From UHGV virus genome UHGV-0155330: 10,342 nucleotides of DNA; one strand, given 5' to 3'. The position numbers and the translations under genes are program-made. The notes beneath the pieces were generated by a model. It saw nothing but the letters and a program-made list of their open reading frames with translations. It did not search any database and was not told the DNA's origin. Source of the DNA: a virus. Numbering within the stretch: the first letter of the stretch is position 1; each line of letters starts with the position of its first letter. Of this stretch, positions 1-8,229 are shown in pieces.

Positions 1-26
1 GCTTTCTATTATGTGAAGGGTAAACA

Positions 27-110
27 ATGAAAGAGCTATTCGACTGGCTGGAAGTATTAACATACTGCGCAAGTTTTGTGGCTTGCGTATATATCATCAA
101 TAAATATTGA
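27..110 (+). CDS. Hypothetical 27-aa hydrophobic peptide (MKELFDWLEVLTYCASFVACVYIINKY), possible small membrane peptide
   Basis: ATG at 27 preceded by AAGGG (16-20) at SD-like spacing; stop TGA 108-110 lies 10 nt before the terS start. Hydrophobic core could form one short transmembrane helix. Not in the supplied ORF track (too short). No homology can be checked. Confidence 0.25.
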   Translation: MKELFDWLEVLTYCASFVACVYIINKY

Positions 111-120
111 GAGGTGAAAT

Positions 121-606
121 ATGGCCCGCACTAAAAAGGCAAAGGCTGACGATAAAAAGCCAGCAGCCAAAAAGACGGGCCGTCCACATGGCTATTCAGA
201 AGAAAAGGCATTGGAGATCTGCGAGCTTGTGTCGGACGGCGAAAGCATTAACAAAATTTCGAAGATGCCTGGTATGCCTGCACGTTCAACAATCCTCAAG
301 TGGTTCCGTGATGTGCCAGAGTTTTCGGACATGTATATGCGCGCGAAGGAGATCGGTTTTGAGGTATTGGCTGATGAGATTATCGATCTTGCTGATGCGC
401 CAGAGAACATCAAAAAGGAAGAATTGAACAGACATCATTTGATGATTGAAACGCGTAAATGGTTACTGGCAAAACTGCAACCGCGTAAATATGGTGAACG
501 CGTCACGCAGGAGATCGTCGGCAACAGGGAAGAAGCGCCAGTCCAGGTTGAAGTCACGAAAGAAGAGATCGCCCGCATCGTCCAGGAAGTAGAAGACGAG
601 GTGTGA
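121..606 (+). CDS. terS: Terminase small subunit (DNA-recognition subunit with N-terminal HTH)
   Basis: 161-aa ORF immediately upstream of, and stop-overlapping, the large terminase gene. Basic N-terminus (MARTKKAKADDKKPAAKK), HTH-like segment (EEKALEICELVSDGESINKISKMPGMPARSTILKWF) and acidic C-terminus are typical of TerS. SD GAGGTGA at 111-117. Confidence 0.75.
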   Translation: MARTKKAKADDKKPAAKKTGRPHGYSEEKALEICELVSDGESINKISKMPGMPARSTILKWFRDVPEFSDMYMRAKEIGFEVLADEIIDLADAPENIKKEELNRHHLMIETRKWLLAKLQPRKYGERVTQEIVGNREEAPVQVEVTKEEIARIVQEVEDEV

Positions 607-608
607 TT

Positions 609-2087
609 ATGTTGACAATCAGAGAACGAGTAATTCAGTCCAAATGTGAAAACGATGGCCTGTTTTTCAATCGCTACTTTTACAAGCAAGCGAATGGAAC
701 GAAGATGTTAATCTCAGGCCATCATTTAGCTATCCGCGACGCACTGCAACGCGTTATCAAAGGTGAGATAACCCGACTCATCATCAACATCCCCCCAGGG
801 TACGGCAAAACCATGATCGCCACTATCAATATGATGGCGCGGTCCCTCGCAATAAATCCCCGCACACGATTCCTTCACGTTTCCTATTCCAACAACCTGG
901 CACTACTCAATTCCTCGACCGTAAGAAACATGATCTGCACGCCTGAGTATCAGGCAATGTGGCCCATGAAGATCCGCAACGATGCAAACTCAAAATCGAT
1001 GTGGTGGACCGAATACGGTGGCGGCGTGTATGCAACGTCATCGCTGGGCCAGGTAACTGGGTTCCGTGCCGGGTATATGGAACCGGGATTTAACGGCGCG
1101 TTAATCATAGACGACCCATTAAAACCCGCTGACGCTTACTCCGATGTTGTGAGAAAGCAGGTAAATACCAACTATAACGACACGCTTGCTTCACGTCTGG
1201 CAGTGCAAACGACGCCTGTTATCGTCATCATGCAGCGCATCCACTACGATGATTTGTCAGGCTACCTGCTACGCGGTGGAAGCGGTGAAAAGTGGTATCA
1301 CCTGAACCTGCCAGTGAAGATCGATAACGGTCTGGACTACTGGGATCTGTACCCTGAAAACGAGTTCGCTATCCCTATCGCTCACAACCTGCCAGATGGC
1401 TGGCTATGGCCTAAAAAGCACAATGACGCCCATGAAGCTGGACTGAAAGCACACAGGCGGTCATTTGAGGCCCAGTACATGCAGCGCCCGCGTAAATTCG
1501 ACGAAGAAGGCGCATTGTGGACTGAAGCAATGATAACCGCAGCGCACCGGATGCAGATAACGCAGGACAAGATCCGCACGGTAATAGCCATCGACCCGGC
1601 GACAACCTCATCGGAAGAATCGGACGAAACGGGGATCATGGCGTGTTCCGCCTATGGTGGCGGCAAGAATGCTCAGTATTCTGTTGATGGTGACTATTCA
1701 GGCCGCATGTCGCCTAACGACTGGGCGCACGCAGCAATGAATGCCTATGACATCCATGAGGCTGACGCGATGGTTATCGAAACCAACCAGGGCGGTGACA
1801 TGGCAGAGGCCACACTACGCAATGCCGGATTCAAAGGCCGCATTGTTAAGGTGCACGCAAGCAAAGGTAAATTCGCCCGTGCCGAACCAATATCTGCACT
1901 GTATGCGCAAGGAAGGGTGGCACACACTGGTGAACTGTACACGCTGGAAAATCAAATGATGGAATACGTGCCAGCTACAGCCAAAAAATCCCCTGACCGT
2001 ATGGACGCAATGGTCTGGGGTATTACCGAATTAAGCCAGCCACAGGCGATGGGCCTCATGTTACCGAAGCGCCTGCGCGGATTTTAA
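609..2087 (+). CDS. terL: Terminase large subunit (ATPase + nuclease)
   Basis: Walker A-like P-loop PPGYGKTM (about nt 790-816), Walker B-like hydrophobic stretch ending in DD (ALIIDDP), and a C-terminal RNase H-like nuclease region (IAIDPATT ... MVIETNQGGD). ATG 609 follows GAGGTG (598-603) and overlaps the terS stop (TGA 604-606). The ORF track starts at GTG 603; ATG 609 is preferred. Confidence 0.9.
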   Translation: MLTIRERVIQSKCENDGLFFNRYFYKQANGTKMLISGHHLAIRDALQRVIKGEITRLIINIPPGYGKTMIATINMMARSLAINPRTRFLHVSYSNNLALLNSSTVRNMICTPEYQAMWPMKIRNDANSKSMWWTEYGGGVYATSSLGQVTGFRAGYMEPGFNGALIIDDPLKPADAYSDVVRKQVNTNYNDTLASRLAVQTTPVIVIMQRIHYDDLSGYLLRGGSGEKWYHLNLPVKIDNGLDYWDLYPENEFAIPIAHNLPDGWLWPKKHNDAHEAGLKAHRRSFEAQYMQRPRKFDEEGALWTEAMITAAHRMQITQDKIRTVIAIDPATTSSEESDETGIMACSAYGGGKNAQYSVDGDYSGRMSPNDWAHAAMNAYDIHEADAMVIETNQGGDMAEATLRNAGFKGRIVKVHASKGKFARAEPISALYAQGRVAHTGELYTLENQMMEYVPATAKKSPDRMDAMVWGITELSQPQAMGLMLPKRLRGF

Positions 2088-2165
2088 AATCTGCCTCACA
2101 ATCCCCCACAAGTTTTTCTATTTTTCGCGTAGCAACGCGTAAACATGTATTCAGGAGTAAACATT

Positions 2166-3536
2166 ATGCCATCCAATTTAGAATTGGCGGTTAATGCTGC
2201 CTTGTCTCAACGCCAGGCGGCCTACGCCCGCTATGCAGCCGCCAACCCATTCACTATGGGGATAGATGCCAAACGCGATGCTGCGTGGAGTGAATACGGA
2301 TTCAAAGAAGAGATCACGTATGACGATCTATACAAACTGTACAGGCGCGGTGGTATCGCTCATGGTGCTGTAGAAAAGATTATCACAACTTGCTGGCGCA
2401 CCAGGCCAACGATGATTGAAGGAACCGAAGACGAGAAAGCCGAAACGGAAACACCCTGGGAAAGAGAAATCAAGAAACAATTTGATAACAGATTTTGGCG
2501 TGTCATTGCCGAATGCGACCGCCGCCGCCTCATCGGTCGTTATGCTGGCCTGTTAATTCATGTCAGAGATAACCAGCCGTGGGATCAGCCAGTAACAAAA
2601 GGCGTAGGCATTGCCAAATTTACCCCCGTATGGGCTGGTGCTCTTACACCGAAGGACTTCGAAGAAAACCCGGATAAAGAAAACTATGGCCTGCCTACAT
2701 GGTGGGAATACAAGGAGCGCATTAACAATAAGACCATAGCAAGAAAGATACATCCAGATCGCATATTTATCTTCGGTGATTATTCTGATGATGCCATTGC
2801 TTTCCTTGAGCCGTCCTATAACGCATTCGTTTCGCTGGAGAAAGTGGAAGGCGGCAGCGGTGAATCATTCCTGAAAAACGCAGCACGTCAACTTGCTATC
2901 TCGTTCGATAAAGAAATTGATTTCCGTTCTCTGGCTGCAACATACGGATGCGACGTCACAGAGCTGCGCGAAAAATTCAACGAGGCAGCGGCTGAAATGA
3001 ATAAGGGTAACGACGTGATGATGGCATTACAGGGGGCAACAGTAAGCCCGCTAGTGACTGCCGTATCTGACCCGTCAGCAACCTATGACGTAAACCTGCA
3101 AACTGCCGCCGCTGGTATTGATATTCCGACCCGCATCCTGGTTGGTAACCAGCAGGGCGAACGCGCATCAACCGAAGATCTCCGCTACTTCAACAGCCGC
3201 TGTATGACCCGCCGCGAGGAAATCGGAGGCGAGCTTGAGGAACTATTCCGCAAGATGGCAGATCTCCGCCTTATCAGTATGCCAATTGATGTATCAGTTA
3301 TATGGGACGACCTGAACGCCATGACTAAAGCCGAACTACTGGAAGCGGCATACAAAATGGCACAAATCAATCAGGCTTGTCTGGCTACTGGTGAAGAAAT
3401 ATTTAGCGGTGACGAGATCCGCGAGGCTGCCGGATACGATGGCCCTGCCAGTGTAGTAGAAACGGAAGAGGAAAACGATGATGAAGGTGAAGAAGATAAT
3501 CAGGCGAATACCTCCAGCCGCTATAATGCCATCTAA
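2166..3536 (+). CDS. Portal protein
   Basis: About 457-aa ORF between terL and the Mu F-like head protein, the canonical portal position. Highly acidic C-terminal tail (ETEEENDDEGEEDNQ). ATG 2166 preceded by AGGAG (2153-2157) at 8-nt spacing; the in-frame upstream ATG 2145 lacks an SD. Confidence 0.75.
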   Translation: MPSNLELAVNAALSQRQAAYARYAAANPFTMGIDAKRDAAWSEYGFKEEITYDDLYKLYRRGGIAHGAVEKIITTCWRTRPTMIEGTEDEKAETETPWEREIKKQFDNRFWRVIAECDRRRLIGRYAGLLIHVRDNQPWDQPVTKGVGIAKFTPVWAGALTPKDFEENPDKENYGLPTWWEYKERINNKTIARKIHPDRIFIFGDYSDDAIAFLEPSYNAFVSLEKVEGGSGESFLKNAARQLAISFDKEIDFRSLAATYGCDVTELREKFNEAAAEMNKGNDVMMALQGATVSPLVTAVSDPSATYDVNLQTAAAGIDIPTRILVGNQQGERASTEDLRYFNSRCMTRREEIGGELEELFRKMADLRLISMPIDVSVIWDDLNAMTKAELLEAAYKMAQINQACLATGEEIFSGDEIREAAGYDGPASVVETEEENDDEGEEDNQANTSSRYNAI

Positions 3537-4422
3537 CACCGAAGACCCGACCATGACAGGTAAGTTACGGTCGGGAGCTATCAAGCGTTTTAAAGCCTGC
3601 CTGAAGAAAGTCGCGGATCCGTATATTGCCATACTGGACAGAATACAATATACCCTGGCTGTTAATAAGAAGTACACCTTCCAGATCTACATTGACGAAT
3701 TGCATGATTTGCTGGAAGACGCCAGCGACATGATTGATGAAATATTCGAGTTAACAGACCCTGAAAACTTCTGGTTCTGGCAGAATTACGTGAAGGTGGC
3801 ATATCAGCGCGGCACTTCACAGGAATATGCCAACCTCTCTAACCAGTCAGTCACATATTCCAGAGCTTATCCAGAAGTGTCGGCGGTATTAACCAGTCAG
3901 ACATATCGCACACGCCTTGCCCTGGTCCGTACCCGTGTATTTGAAGAGATGCGCGGGCTTACAGCACAGATCAAGAAGGATATGGCTCGCCGATTAACTG
4001 AAGGCATGGCCCGTGGCTTAAACCCACTGGAAATAGCACGCACATTGCAGCAGGAAACGCAATTGCCGCTATACAGGTGTAAACGTATTGCCCGTACTGA
4101 AATATGCACAGCGTTACGCACAGCTCGTATGGATGAGGCAGAGGCCGCATCGGATGAGCTTAACTTGCGCACTATGCAGATGCACATTTCTGCACTGTCA
4201 CCGACTACCAGGTTATCACACGCACAGCGGCACGGGAAAACGTACACCATAGAAGAGCAGCGCGAATGGTGGAGCAGATCCCCAAATTCAATTAACTGCA
4301 AATGTAGCACTATTACCGTGATGGTCGATGAATCTGGTAACATATTAAACAAACGAATATTAGATCGGGCGCAAGAAAACTATAAGGTTGCGCACGCTAA
4401 ATATGGCGAAGATTGGGAGTAA
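3526..4422 (+). CDS. Phage Mu F-like / SPP1 gp7-like minor head (head morphogenesis) protein
   Basis: Motifs characteristic of the Mu F family: RIARTEICTALRTAR, HISALSPTTR, AQRHGKTY, NCKCS. Start is ambiguous: in-frame ATGs at 3478, 3526 and 3553. I chose 3526, which overlaps the portal stop (3534-3536). Confidence 0.75.
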   Translation: MPSNTEDPTMTGKLRSGAIKRFKACLKKVADPYIAILDRIQYTLAVNKKYTFQIYIDELHDLLEDASDMIDEIFELTDPENFWFWQNYVKVAYQRGTSQEYANLSNQSVTYSRAYPEVSAVLTSQTYRTRLALVRTRVFEEMRGLTAQIKKDMARRLTEGMARGLNPLEIARTLQQETQLPLYRCKRIARTEICTALRTARMDEAEAASDELNLRTMQMHISALSPTTRLSHAQRHGKTYTIEEQREWWSRSPNSINCKCSTITVMVDESGNILNKRILDRAQENYKVAHAKYGEDWE

Positions 4423-4427
4423 AAACC

Positions 4428-5717
4428 GTGAATAAAGAACTGATTCAGGTTAATACCAAATTAACCGCTAATACCATCCGCCGGGAAACATATAACGGTC
4501 GCGAACACATTGTGGTTCCGTCGTATACGTTGCCCTTTAATATCGTTATGAATCGGGAATATTACCCGGAAGCTGAAATCATTGCTAATTATCAATCTTT
4601 GGAAGGTACGCTTGCGCCGCTGGGTCATCCTACCGTAGACGGTGAATTTGTTTCCGCATTTAGCCCGGAAGGTCTGAATATTGGCTTTTGCGGAGCGTGG
4701 AACAGAAATGTTGAATTACGTGGCAACCGTGTTTATGTGGAAAAATGGGTGGATGTTGAAACCGCCAGCCATTCAGAACAAGGTCGCGAATTATTAAGCC
4801 GACTCGAAGCACTGGAAAAAGGTGAAAGCAAAGATCCGATCTGGTCATCTGTTGCCGTATATCGTCAGCGTATGCCAGCTACTGAAGAAATGAAAGCACA
4901 GGGTGCTGACAGCGTGGTTAAAATCATGTCAATCGACCATGACGCCATCCTACTTCATGAACCGCCAGCCGCATCGCCAGAACAGGGTGTTGGCCTGATG
5001 GTTAACACTGACCAGGCGAAGCCGTTAATGGCGGTGGCAATGAAAGAAAACAGCTATCGCACGCTTGAGAAACAATTAACTGACGCGGCGCGGGAATTAT
5101 TCCCTGATGCCGATTATGTGTATGTGGTGGACTTCACTGATAAAGAAGTGACGATCGCCACTAATACTGAAAGTGCTCAAGTTTGCACGTATGAAAAACA
5201 GGCTGATAAAATAATTCTCAATAATGGCGAGCTTGCAACCAATGAGGAAAGTAAATCGTGGTTCGCTCAGTTCGCTGAACACTTATCTAATCTTTTCTCC
5301 CTGAATGAAAAAATTAAGGCCAATAAATCGGAGGGTGAACCCATGCCTTTGACCAAAGAAGAACGCGCCGAACTGGTAAAAGAAATTAACGAAGGTTTAG
5401 CCGCTAATATCGCCAGTGCAGTAGCTGAAGCACTTAAACCAGTACAGGCAAGCGTTGAAGAATTACAGACCAACCAAAAAGAATTGCAGACCAACCAGAA
5501 AGCGATTAAAGAAGAGATCGCAGCAAACGCAGATAAAGAAGTAGCAGAAAAACGCGCCGCAGTAGCAAAAGTACACGGCGAAATTGTTGCTAACGCATTA
5601 AGTGGTGAAGCGTTAGAAGCAATGTTTAAATCCCTGGGCAAAGCAGCGCCGATGGCAACCAACGCAGCAAGCGAAGGTAAAAAAGGCGAAGTACCAGACT
5701 TTAACACTTATTTCTAA
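4428..5717 (+). CDS. Head maturation protease / scaffolding-type protein with C-terminal coiled-coil (putative)
   Basis: Large ORF between the Mu F-like gene and the capsid genes. The C-terminal third is Ala/Glu/Lys-rich with heptad-like repeats (ELQTNQKELQTNQKAIKEEI), typical of scaffold domains. Preferred start is GTG 4428, preceded by GGGAG (4415-4419); the ORF track's TTG 4413 overlaps the upstream stop. Whether the N-terminal part is a protease cannot be decided by eye. Confidence 0.55.
   Translation: MNKELIQVNTKLTANTIRRETYNGREHIVVPSYTLPFNIVMNREYYPEAEIIANYQSLEGTLAPLGHPTVDGEFVSAFSPEGLNIGFCGAWNRNVELRGNRVYVEKWVDVETASHSEQGRELLSRLEALEKGESKDPIWSSVAVYRQRMPATEEMKAQGADSVVKIMSIDHDAILLHEPPAASPEQGVGLMVNTDQAKPLMAVAMKENSYRTLEKQLTDAARELFPDADYVYVVDFTDKEVTIATNTESAQVCTYEKQADKIILNNGELATNEESKSWFAQFAEHLSNLFSLNEKIKANKSEGEPMPLTKEERAELVKEINEGLAANIASAVAEALKPVQASVEELQTNQKELQTNQKAIKEEIAANADKEVAEKRAAVAKVHGEIVANALSGEALEAMFKSLGKAAPMATNAASEGKKGEVPDFNTYF
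5460..5501 (+). repeat. Imperfect 21-bp tandem duplication (GAATTACAGACCAACCAAAAA / GAATTGCAGACCAACCAGAAA) inside the scaffold coiled-coil region
   Basis: Two adjacent 21-nt units differing at 2 positions, in frame, encoding ELQTNQK twice. Confidence 0.9.
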
Positions 5718-7293: not shown

Positions 7294-7680
7294 ATGGTCA
7301 CTACAGAACAGGCGCGGGAATATCTTGAAAGCCAGGGTATTGACCTGCCAGACGTTATCTTATCATTGCTGGTGGAGCAGGCAAACAGCGTTAACGAATG
7401 CCTTGATGCCAACTATCCGGCCTCCACTGCAACATTAATTCAACTTTACCTGATTGGCCTGTTGGGGCTCACCCAGGCTAACAAATACGTTTCCTCGCAT
7501 ACTGGTACGAACGGTGCAAGCCAGTCATACCGCTATGTCGATTTCAATAAAAAATGGAAGGCAGCACACTCGTTGCTTTACTCCCTTGATAAGAATCACT
7601 GTACAGCCGAATTAATTCCAGCAGATCCAGAAAACACCGCGCACGCTGGCTTGTGGATAGGTAAAAGCGGGAGGATGTAA
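7294..7680 (+). CDS. Putative head-tail adaptor / connector protein
   Basis: 128-aa ORF right after the capsid terminator. SD TGGAG precedes ATG 7294. Position is typical for head completion/adaptor proteins. No diagnostic motif recognised. Confidence 0.4.
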   Translation: MVTTEQAREYLESQGIDLPDVILSLLVEQANSVNECLDANYPASTATLIQLYLIGLLGLTQANKYVSSHTGTNGASQSYRYVDFNKKWKAAHSLLYSLDKNHCTAELIPADPENTAHAGLWIGKSGRM

Positions 7681-7682
7681 CA

Positions 7683-7868
7683 ATGTGGAATGACCTTACA
7701 TTACCGGATCCGTTATTGCCAAAACTGTTTACCCGCGTATGGGTGAAGACTGACACCGGGCGACAGGTTGCGGCATATCTCAATGACGCTGGCGAATGGG
7801 TGATTCTTTGCCCACGCGTGGCGAAAACCCATCCGAAAATCGTCAAATGGAGCTATGGCTATGAGTAA
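7683..7868 (+). CDS. Hypothetical small protein (61 aa) in the head-tail joining cluster
   Basis: Strong SD GGGAGGA (7669-7675) before ATG 7683. Start lies 2 nt after the upstream stop and the ORF overlaps the downstream gene start, suggesting a translationally coupled real gene. Confidence 0.45.
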   Translation: MWNDLTLPDPLLPKLFTRVWVKTDTGRQVAAYLNDAGEWVILCPRVAKTHPKIVKWSYGYE

Positions 7869-8229
7869 GATCGCGAGATTCAGTTACAAGGCATTAGCCA
7901 CCATTTACCCCGTAACGCGTGACGACTGGACAAACTCAGACGTATACGGAACGCCATATCTTATTGATTGTGCATGGGAACGCACTGACGGAACCGCAAC
8001 AGACGCAAACGGGAATGAGGTTAGCAACACGATAACCGTATATACCGAACTGCTTCACAAGATGCAGCCAGTACAGCGCCCGGAAAAAGGGTGGATGATT
8101 GCCACTGGGGACACTACTGCTATTGCTGACCCGCTGGCGGCTGGGGCCAACTTTATAACCGGGATCGTTGAATGGGACATGAGTATATTTAACGACACGC
8201 CGGATTATAAGATCGTTACAGGGGGTTAA
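7861..8229 (+). CDS. Putative head closure / head-tail joining protein
   Basis: About 122-aa ORF. ATG 7861 lies 8 nt after GGAG (7849-7852); the ORF track's ATG 7855 is 6 nt upstream in frame. Size and position fit small head-closure proteins. Assignment is positional. Confidence 0.35.
   Translation: MSKIARFSYKALATIYPVTRDDWTNSDVYGTPYLIDCAWERTDGTATDANGNEVSNTITVYTELLHKMQPVQRPEKGWMIATGDTTAIADPLAAGANFITGIVEWDMSIFNDTPDYKIVTGG

Follow-up and report, generated by a model that had tools for sequence, protein, structure and literature searches.

The stretch of DNA analysed here, referred to as the window, comprises 10,342 nucleotides of the virus genome UHGV-0155330. Near its 5′ end lies a mini-ORF, F00, which runs on the plus strand from an ATG at positions 27–29 to a TGA at 108–110 and consists of 27 codons followed by the stop, with the predicted product MKELFDWLEVLTYCASFVACVYIINKY. 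A Shine-Dalgarno (SD)-like AAGGG is located at positions 16–20 of the same strand, 6 nt 5′ of the ATG, where it overlaps the stop codon of a preceding mini-ORF. AAGG or AAGGG is kept in most of the 40 distinct upstream contexts that we compared; in a few, for example the mEp021 type and L052, the motif is weak or missing. The preceding mini-ORF is cut by the window edge: translation of bases 1–16 (plus strand) gives its 3′ end, ...ALSIM followed by a TGA at 14–16, and its 5′ part lies outside. It belongs to a family termed F07′. In the closest prophage, L055, which aligns with window positions 1–620, F07′ is MDNMRESDFIYMVLAIVLITWALSIM, encoded by an ORF at 3436..3516 that ends at the base equivalent to window position 16.

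On the 3′ side, alignment defines the junction between F00 and the next gene (positions 108–120, plus strand). The F00 stop codon at 108–110 directly abuts the SD sequence GAGGTGA of terS at 111–117, and a 3-nt spacer leads to the terS ATG at 121; in all, 10 nt (111–120) separate the two genes. The junction sequence is TGAGAGGTGA, and T(G/A)AGAGGTGA does not vary across the alignment. The terS gene (121..606, plus strand) encodes an Sf6-type small terminase of 161 residues with an N-terminal HTH (PF20901, E = 3e-36; phrog_1482, E = 4e-49). It is followed by terL, the gene for the large terminase (603..2087, plus strand; phrog_38, E = 3e-98; Terminase_6C), and then by genes for the portal, a MuF-like protein, the capsid, the tail terminator and the tail tube. 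Because terS, terL, portal, MuF-like, capsid and tail genes come next, F00 stands at the head of the late operon for packaging and morphogenesis. The initial annotation of this DNA had placed the ATG at 27, the TGA at 108–110, an AAGGG upstream and terS 10 nt downstream, and had noted that the upstream context is lost at the window edge; the sequence confirms each of these positions, the profile matches confirm the next gene as terS, and the first 16 bases are indeed the end of another gene of the same kind.

The length of F00 as a bare ORF is within chance: 23 ORFs of at least 20 residues overlap the first 1200 nt. What raises F00 above chance is the comparative evidence, namely that it is open in all relatives and that its substitutions are of the coding type.

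F00 is missing from existing annotations

Seven GenBank phages of the mEp021 (mEpimmI) group align with the region at 85–94% identity: mEp554, mEp013, mEp044, mEp010, mEp515, mEp021 and MagusPhagus. The region also matches prophages in 35 of 5426 complete E. coli genomes and 47 IMG/VR contigs, and phages of this group are reported to be prevalent in the human gut (PMC11893012). Among phages with differing upstream genes, similarity starts at about window positions 13–16.

None of the seven GenBank phage records annotates F00 in its own frame. In three of them (mEp013, mEp044 and mEp515) PHANOTATE annotates an overlapping ORF in another frame, and in the closest prophage PGAP leaves about 930 nt 5′ of terS without genes. 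The expectation that ORF callers overlook proteins of this kind therefore holds for both the phage and the prophage annotations. The virion proteomics of the mEpimmI paper was likewise run against annotations that lack F00. The peptide has no match in Pfam, PHROGs, NCBIfam, PADLOC or the PDB, and a tblastn search of 50,697 phage records returned it only from the same seven phages. The exact peptide is missing from a collection of 15 billion proteins, in which sequences as short as 27 residues are not stored, and a TerS scan of genome contigs gave no matches. In the literature we found no description of the F00 family, nor of a dense array of about ten different mini-genes at one phage locus.

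The F00 reading frame is conserved as a coding sequence

For comparative analysis, we used a set of 58 sequences composed of the window, the seven phages, 47 IMG/VR loci, one prophage and two metagenome contigs. F00 is intact in all 58, in the form of 38 DNA haplotypes and 16 peptide variants, and its length differs by whole codons only (27 or 28). The start codon is ATG in 56 sequences and GTG in two, and both GTG alleles are preceded, three codons earlier, by an in-frame ATG. As the stop codon, 40 sequences use TGA and 18 use TAA.

The variation within the main clade (30 haplotypes from 48 loci) is of a distinct kind. We count 18 synonymous and 14 nonsynonymous changes, an approximately 3-fold synonymous excess that corresponds to an omega of about 0.18. 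Under random mutation a synonymous fraction of 0.19 is expected, and the departure from it is significant at p = 2.6e-6 in a substitution test that disregards phylogeny and counts each allele per site once. Variable sites fall at third codon positions in 14 of 27 cases, and 42 of the 48 loci encode an identical peptide. When the same sites are read in frames +1 and +2, omega rises to about 1.1–1.4, which looks neutral, and three stop-creating alleles appear in each frame. By the same crude estimator, terS has an omega of 0.43. The diverged alleles, which share 44–78% amino acid identity, keep 27 or 28 codons and the hydrophobic character of the peptide; M1, K2, L4, Y13, A15, C20, Y22 and I23 are retained. 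Examples are the mEp021 type, MKYLSSWFGVSIYFATLIECLYIVNKF, and a type of 28 residues, ...CATLIACLYILCKWF.

The pattern in the relatives is thus one of varying DNA and a preserved peptide. It is the opposite of a frame broken within conserved DNA, the outcome that would have pointed away from a gene; no disruption of the frame is seen in any of the 58 sequences. From these substitution patterns, we consider it very probable that F00 is a protein-coding gene under selection. The universal retention of F00 may owe something to its linkage with the conserved region around the terS start.

F00 is the last member of a mini-gene array

In the relatives, F00 is one of several mini-ORFs located between terS and a PolyVal-like HExxH gene (~180–194 residues), which itself lies 3′ of the lysis cassette. 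The 318–1154 nt between these two genes are filled by 2–13 mini-ORFs (median 9) of 20–47 codons that are arranged head to tail on the plus strand; at the four loci examined, they take up 79–97% of the gap. The same ORF search finds one on the reverse strand, and shuffled sequence yields a mean of at most 1.3 with a maximum of 4. Across 55 loci, we identified 490 mini-ORFs in about 20 families, which occur in at most one copy per locus and in colinear order, giving 41 architectures. The peptides share a common design in which a short N-terminus, acidic in most cases (M-x-x-x-[D/E]-hydrophobic), precedes 15–20 apolar residues.

Synonymous changes are enriched in the proposed frame in each of the 15 families that could be tested (p from 9e-3 to 1e-6). 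Pooled over families the counts are S282/N282/X3, compared with 91 and 35 alleles that create stops when the other two frames are read. As judged from these substitutions, all 15 testable families are under purifying selection. Neighbouring units mostly overlap by 8 or 4 nt or are separated by spacers of 4–11 nt, and most of them carry an SD match of at least 4 nt, exceeding control positions. A consensus scan, in itself weak evidence, found no promoter-like sites on the plus strand inside the array, which is thus most simply read as part of a late polycistronic message that continues into terS. On the minus strand there are three promoter-like sites, compared with 5.3 ± 2.1 in shuffled sequence, and none lies opposite F00.

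The array contains no tandem repeat at the DNA level, only short similarities around SD sequences and starts, and its concatenated peptides match no family. Comparison of family HMMs links F01-F13-F08-F20, F03-F07 and F10-F14-F15 (E values of 1e-5 to 1e-10, set of 204 sequences). In addition, F07 fills two slots and one contig has an in-frame F04/F01 hybrid. The array thus expands and is rearranged through duplication and recombination.

We also considered two other origins or uses of the array. Decay of a multi-pass membrane-protein gene was rejected, as the concatenated array has no family match and selection acts on every unit in that unit's frame. A RiPP-like system, in which the HExxH enzyme modifies the neighbouring peptides, is unlikely because the match reaches 11.7 bits against a cut-off of 40 bits and the ST64T homologue occurs without an array. 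In ST64T-like phages, the HExxH homologue (orf129) is located before terS and is followed by an ordinary gene of 134 residues. Searches beside distant Sf6-type terS genes and orf129 homologues found no array outside the mEp021 group. In these searches, the array is confined to this group.

F00 is the only family found in every locus and is invariably the last member of the array. It shares the general design, an acidic N-terminus followed by an apolar helix, and the genomic position of the other families, and has no detectable similarity to them (best cross-match E = 0.03–0.15). Lacking such similarity, F00 may act differently from the rest of the array.

Possible membrane association of the F00 peptide

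The best 15-residue segment of F00 has a mean Kyte-Doolittle hydropathy of 2.18. On a simple additive insertion scale, its best segment of 17–19 residues scores +1.1 to +4.2 kcal/mol, compared with −2 to −5 kcal/mol for most other array members. F00 is the least hydrophobic member of the array, and D6 and E9 (E19 in the mEp021 type) are placed within its apolar stretch. Because of this low hydrophobicity and the acidic residues in the apolar stretch, insertion of F00 into the membrane is uncertain. The flanks are charged, with a net −2 on the N-terminal side and +1 on the C-terminal side. Across the families, an acidic residue is found within the first seven positions in 19 of 23 and a basic residue within the last seven in 15 of 23. 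The hydrophobic moments of the array peptides are low (0.02–0.25). A grouping of the conserved residues on a single helical face was considered and rejected (p = 0.28).

The initial annotation had offered a translated small membrane peptide as one of two possibilities. The comparative data support a coding, selected peptide; its transmembrane nature is borderline on the simple additive scale. Taken together, the predictions tip the balance slightly in favour of a membrane-associated product.

A proposed role for F00

We favour, at a probability of roughly 0.7, a composite reading in which F00 is a real peptide gene of the mini-gene array and not a dedicated leader. F00 is then the terminal, universally conserved cistron of an unannotated array of 2–13 mini-genes in the temperate coliphages of the mEp021 (mEpimmI) group. 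Its peptide would be made late in infection, from the late transcript, and would associate with the inner membrane as a single helix. Under the positive-inside rule, an N-out/C-in orientation is predicted because the N-terminal flank is acidic and the C-terminal flank basic. The peptide may act by contact with a membrane component or with another helix rather than enzymatically, and termination of its translation on the next SD would bring about coupling as an incidental effect. Candidate roles include the timing of lysis, exclusion, and interference with a membrane protein of the host or of a competitor; each of these, taken singly, is doubtful.

The idea can be extended to the array as a whole. 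A ‘mini-protein cassette array’ would supply up to 13 independently translated single-helix peptides of 20–47 residues, each aimed at its own membrane component in the host or in competing phages. We regard this extension as speculative and unlikely. The units would diversify through duplication, in-frame recombination, and gain and loss; possible targets are the transmembrane effectors of abortive infection, the lysis machinery and DNA-entry channels. The one member that cannot be dispensed with would be F00, whose conserved role would be linked either to the onset of packaging or to the close of the lytic cycle. If true, the array would represent a new phage arsenal for counter-defence or exclusion, composed of proteins below the annotation threshold.

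Toxic or lysis-related peptides

A more specific version of the composite reading is that F00, its neighbours, or both are toxic or lysis-related membrane peptides (type I toxin-like, Sgl-like or holin-accessory) that depolarise or otherwise perturb the inner membrane late in infection. Such peptides would tune lysis or block superinfection. In size and composition F00 resembles the class of DinQ, TisB, Ibs and ShoB (for DinQ, PMC3567139), and it follows the holin-endolysin-spanin cassette, with both transcribed in one direction. The array member F11, of 47 residues, weakly matches a holin PHROG (E = 0.029), and both the presence/absence variation of the array and its fast divergence resemble an arms race. 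However, the phage already has a class II holin, F00 itself has no charged C-terminal domain, and nothing matches PADLOC. The locus also differs from that of a type I toxin, as there is no long structured 5′ UTR and the antisense promoter signal is not above chance, with fewer minus-strand sites than expected. We therefore consider this version improbable.

Possible translational coupling to terS

A rival reading holds that F00 serves solely to deliver ribosomes to terS or to unmask the terS SD, and that the peptide is functionless. The geometry is that of a coupled pair: the F00 TGA abuts GAGGTGA, the ATG at 121 follows within 10 nt, and the junction is invariant. Moreover, F00 alone among the array units is never lost and always comes last. 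The MFE fold of the window pairs five nucleotides of the terS SD with F00 codons 23–24, and this pairing is possible in 86% of alignment cells.

The peptide itself argues against this role. Pure delivery of ribosomes requires no specific peptide sequence, yet F00 is selected at the peptide level (omega ~0.18) and is the same in most of the main clade despite many synonymous changes. The terS gene owns a perfect 7-nt SD at optimal spacing, and every array junction has the same arrangement of stop and SD. F00 and terS are not adjacent in 5 of the 57 related loci; an unrelated acidic ORF of 47–48 residues is inserted between them and is flanked by a repeated ATT-TRA-GAGGTGA junction. The recurrence of this junction after the inserted ORF indicates that it serves any gene that follows.

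Nor does the RNA show a conserved element. The fold is no more stable than shuffled sequence (z = −1.46), the alifold consensus structure reaches only −2.7 kcal/mol, and the candidate SD-masking helix has no compensatory pairs and breaks in diverged alleles. Co-evolution of F00 with TerS was rejected, as their divergences are uncorrelated (Mantel r = −0.03, p = 0.41) and F00 alleles reassort independently of TerS. In contrast, terS and terL co-vary (rho = 0.53). As variation in F00 does not follow that in TerS and no RNA structure is conserved, F00 is unlikely to be a dedicated leader, and a small chance is all that we assign to the reading with a functionless peptide. The suggestion in the initial annotation of a leader ORF for terS is not supported, on the same grounds together with terS's own SD, the gene inserted in five loci and the conservation of the peptide. 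Some translational coupling from F00 to the next gene is nevertheless likely, since ribosomes that end translation of F00 stop on the SD of that gene. The coupling is generic to all array junctions and is not the reason why F00 exists.

Two further features of this region were inspected. A 9-bp hairpin at window positions 67–88 was discarded as a by-product of the Cys-Ala...Ala-Cys codons, and it is missing from the mEp021-type allele. On the plus strand, no terminator-like site adjoins terS.

Non-coding and alternative-frame explanations

The conservation at this site might instead belong to a non-coding element, either a DNA site for pac or terminase recognition or a regulatory RNA, in which case the ORF would be incidental. 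Headful phages have their pac sites in or near terS, F00 lies directly 5′ of an Sf6-type terS, and the invariant junction would fit such a site. The distribution of variation is that of a gene, however, being concentrated at third codon positions and synonymous in one frame only. Diverged alleles keep frame, length and key residues despite differences at about 30% of their nucleotides, and neither repeats nor a conserved structure are present. We consider a non-coding element very improbable.

Weakest is the proposal that the true gene is the +1-frame ORF (called by PHANOTATE in three records, open in many loci and ending 17–18 nt before terS), or that F00 is a chance or pseudogene fragment of a decayed larger membrane-protein gene: the +1 frame has an internal stop in MagusPhagus, lacks a start codon in the window, mEp554 and mEp010, and accumulates mostly nonsynonymous changes including stop-creating alleles (S5/N24/X3), while each unit across 55 loci has its own start, SD and stop and the concatenated array has no Pfam match, so that the probability of either is close to negligible.

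Implications for phage annotation

What is new here is a phage mini-protein, so far unannotated, at the unchanging end of a mini-gene array that is itself diversifying. F00 and about ten neighbours are invisible to PGAP, largely mis-framed by PHANOTATE and missing from Pfam, PHROGs, NCBIfam and the collection of 15 billion proteins, yet they are kept by selection. As a result, an ‘intergenic’ stretch of 0.3–1.2 kb before the terminase genes becomes the most gene-dense region of the genome, and the annotations of mEp021-group phages and prophages need correcting. The finding bears on the phage coding capacity that is hidden under the 30-codon cut-off. Small hydrophobic phage proteins are known but poorly charted, and F00 is an unusually clean and statistically solid case. 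The phages concerned infect E. coli K-12 and have lysogens, and they offer a tractable system for the birth, shuffling and roles of arrays of single-helix mini-proteins.

Comparison with known systems

Small membrane peptides of E. coli include DinQ (27 residues), TisB (29), ShoB (26) and Ibs (18–19), as well as the regulators MgtS and AcrZ. Type I toxins are encoded at stand-alone loci, each with a separate promoter, an antisense RNA and a structured 5′ UTR, and ldr, ibs and zor occur as tandem copies. DinQ is a single transmembrane peptide of the inner membrane (PMC3567139), and small membrane proteins have been reviewed (PMC12648545). F00 resembles these proteins and toxins in having about 20–35 residues, one hydrophobic helix (in F00 a predicted one) with few flanking charges and no signal peptide, and in being routinely missed by annotation. 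Unlike type I toxins, it lies as a cistron inside a phage late operon whose spacers measure 10 nt, without an antisense promoter signal and without sequence similarity to them.

As a group of genes, the array can be compared with S. aureus PSM-alpha1-4 (about 21 residues each) and the aureocin A70 genes aurABCD (30–31 residues each). By analogy, it would likewise consist of distinct genes of 20–30 codons arranged head to tail on one transcript, with separate leaderless translation of each. The PSM-alpha and aureocin A70 peptides are cationic, amphipathic and secreted, act as cytolysins or bacteriocins, have dedicated ABC exporters and are encoded on Gram-positive chromosomes or plasmids. The array peptides, in contrast, are phage products with an apolar core behind an acidic N-terminus, and no gene for an exporter lies in the vicinity.

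Among phage proteins, LysM is a single-gene lysis peptide of 37 residues that targets MurJ, and Sgl proteins come from ssRNA phages. Small phage membrane proteins of the Sgl, holin/antiholin and exclusion types act by contacting a host membrane protein, as F00 may do. Like Sgl proteins, holins, antiholins and exclusion proteins such as HK97 gp15, F00 is phage-encoded, has one transmembrane helix (here a predicted one) and is located near the lysis module. Holins have at least about 57 residues and charged C-terminal tails, whereas F00 has 27 residues, ends in NKY and matches no holin in Pfam or PHROGs, and a separate class II holin is encoded upstream. To our knowledge, no known Sgl, holin or exclusion protein forms an array of at least ten different units.

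F00 has in common with leader ORFs and coupled cistrons a stop codon that abuts the SD of the next gene, no more than 10 nt from its start. It differs from leader ORFs in that its peptide is conserved, there is no conserved attenuator or SD-masking structure, and adjacency to terS is not obligatory.

Finally, Fremin et al. 2022 reportedly predicted families of small phage genes. ‘The Cryptic Bacterial Microproteome’ (PMC11188072) describes conserved intergenic smORFs of Enterobacteriaceae that are under purifying selection, mostly hydrophobic, possibly transmembrane and often co-directional with their neighbours. F00 fits the broad class of conserved hydrophobic smORFs that emerges from the phage and enterobacterial surveys. 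These surveys report single families, whereas F00 belongs to a dense array of many families.

The mini-ORF array before terS

The region before the small terminase gene terS, shown as 'intergenic', is densely packed with unannotated mini-ORFs, numbering 2-13 in the related loci. They are 20-47 codons long, fall into about 20 families and encode one hydrophobic helix each. Purifying selection is observed in every testable family of the array. Among 55 loci we count 41 architectures, exemplified by the arrays at 2697-3610 in the closest prophage (L055), 2029-3095 in L003 and 349-1490 in L042. Positions 1-16 of the window are the truncated edge of such an array.

At one related locus (L059), a hybrid mini-ORF at 4558-4802, MDDYIIAGLIGISVFLVSFVIAVDVYREIKK, joins the N-terminus of family F04 in frame to the C-terminus of family F01, and a degraded F03 unit is fused to F05, indicating that the units of the array recombine and occasionally decay. 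An ORF of 47-48 residues, MVSNEELKMADEIRKALDAAENNETVYFSEREVEKMMDEFKLKFEKDN, is inserted between terS and F00, the last array member, at L017 (1335-1500), L028 and L029 (1336-1500), L032 and L054. The encoded protein is acidic, hydrophilic and unrelated, and no family match was found for it. A stop/SD junction of the form ATT-TRA-GAGGTGA is repeated around the inserted ORF. This insertion is probably also present in two E. coli genome matches, H18 and H20.

Other genes of the region

HNH_3 homing-endonuclease-like genes are present in some relatives, within or after the lysis cassette, and the MuF-like head gene of one relative contains an intein domain. These entries (L058, 2752-3273 and 8491 onwards; L059, 2194-2718 and 3413-3985) represent mobile elements that have inserted into the late region.

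The portal gene (window 2145-3536, equivalent to 5666-7036 in L055) matches Pfam Phage_portal_3 with an E-value of 3e-19. PGAP names the L055 protein 'anti-CBASS protein Acb1 family protein', a label that the annotation pipeline probably assigned as an artefact. As listed, the portal ORF overlaps the MuF-like ORF, with its ATG at 3478, by 59 nt (3478-3536). The true MuF start is uncertain, as relatives are annotated with different starts, for example a later one in mEp021. Further downstream, a 61-residue ORF on the + strand (7683-7868), beginning MWNDLTLPDPLLPKLFTRVWVKTD, is likely to be a genuine small gene. It takes up precisely the space left between the DUF7370 gene (7294-7680) and the head-tail gene that follows (7855-8229), and it shares 14 nt with the latter.

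Upstream of the array and outside the window, L055 contains a gene (2122-2694) for an HExxH-motif protein of about 180-194 residues, a member of phrog_1365 with the motif LVHECAHTT. Compared with an HExxH peptide hydroxylase the protein scores 11.7 bits, far below the cut-off of 40; a 62%-identical relative is named 'PolyVal Metallopeptidase superfamily domain' in one source. In ST64T, L and epsilon34 its homologues (orf129) are likewise located between the lysis genes and terS.
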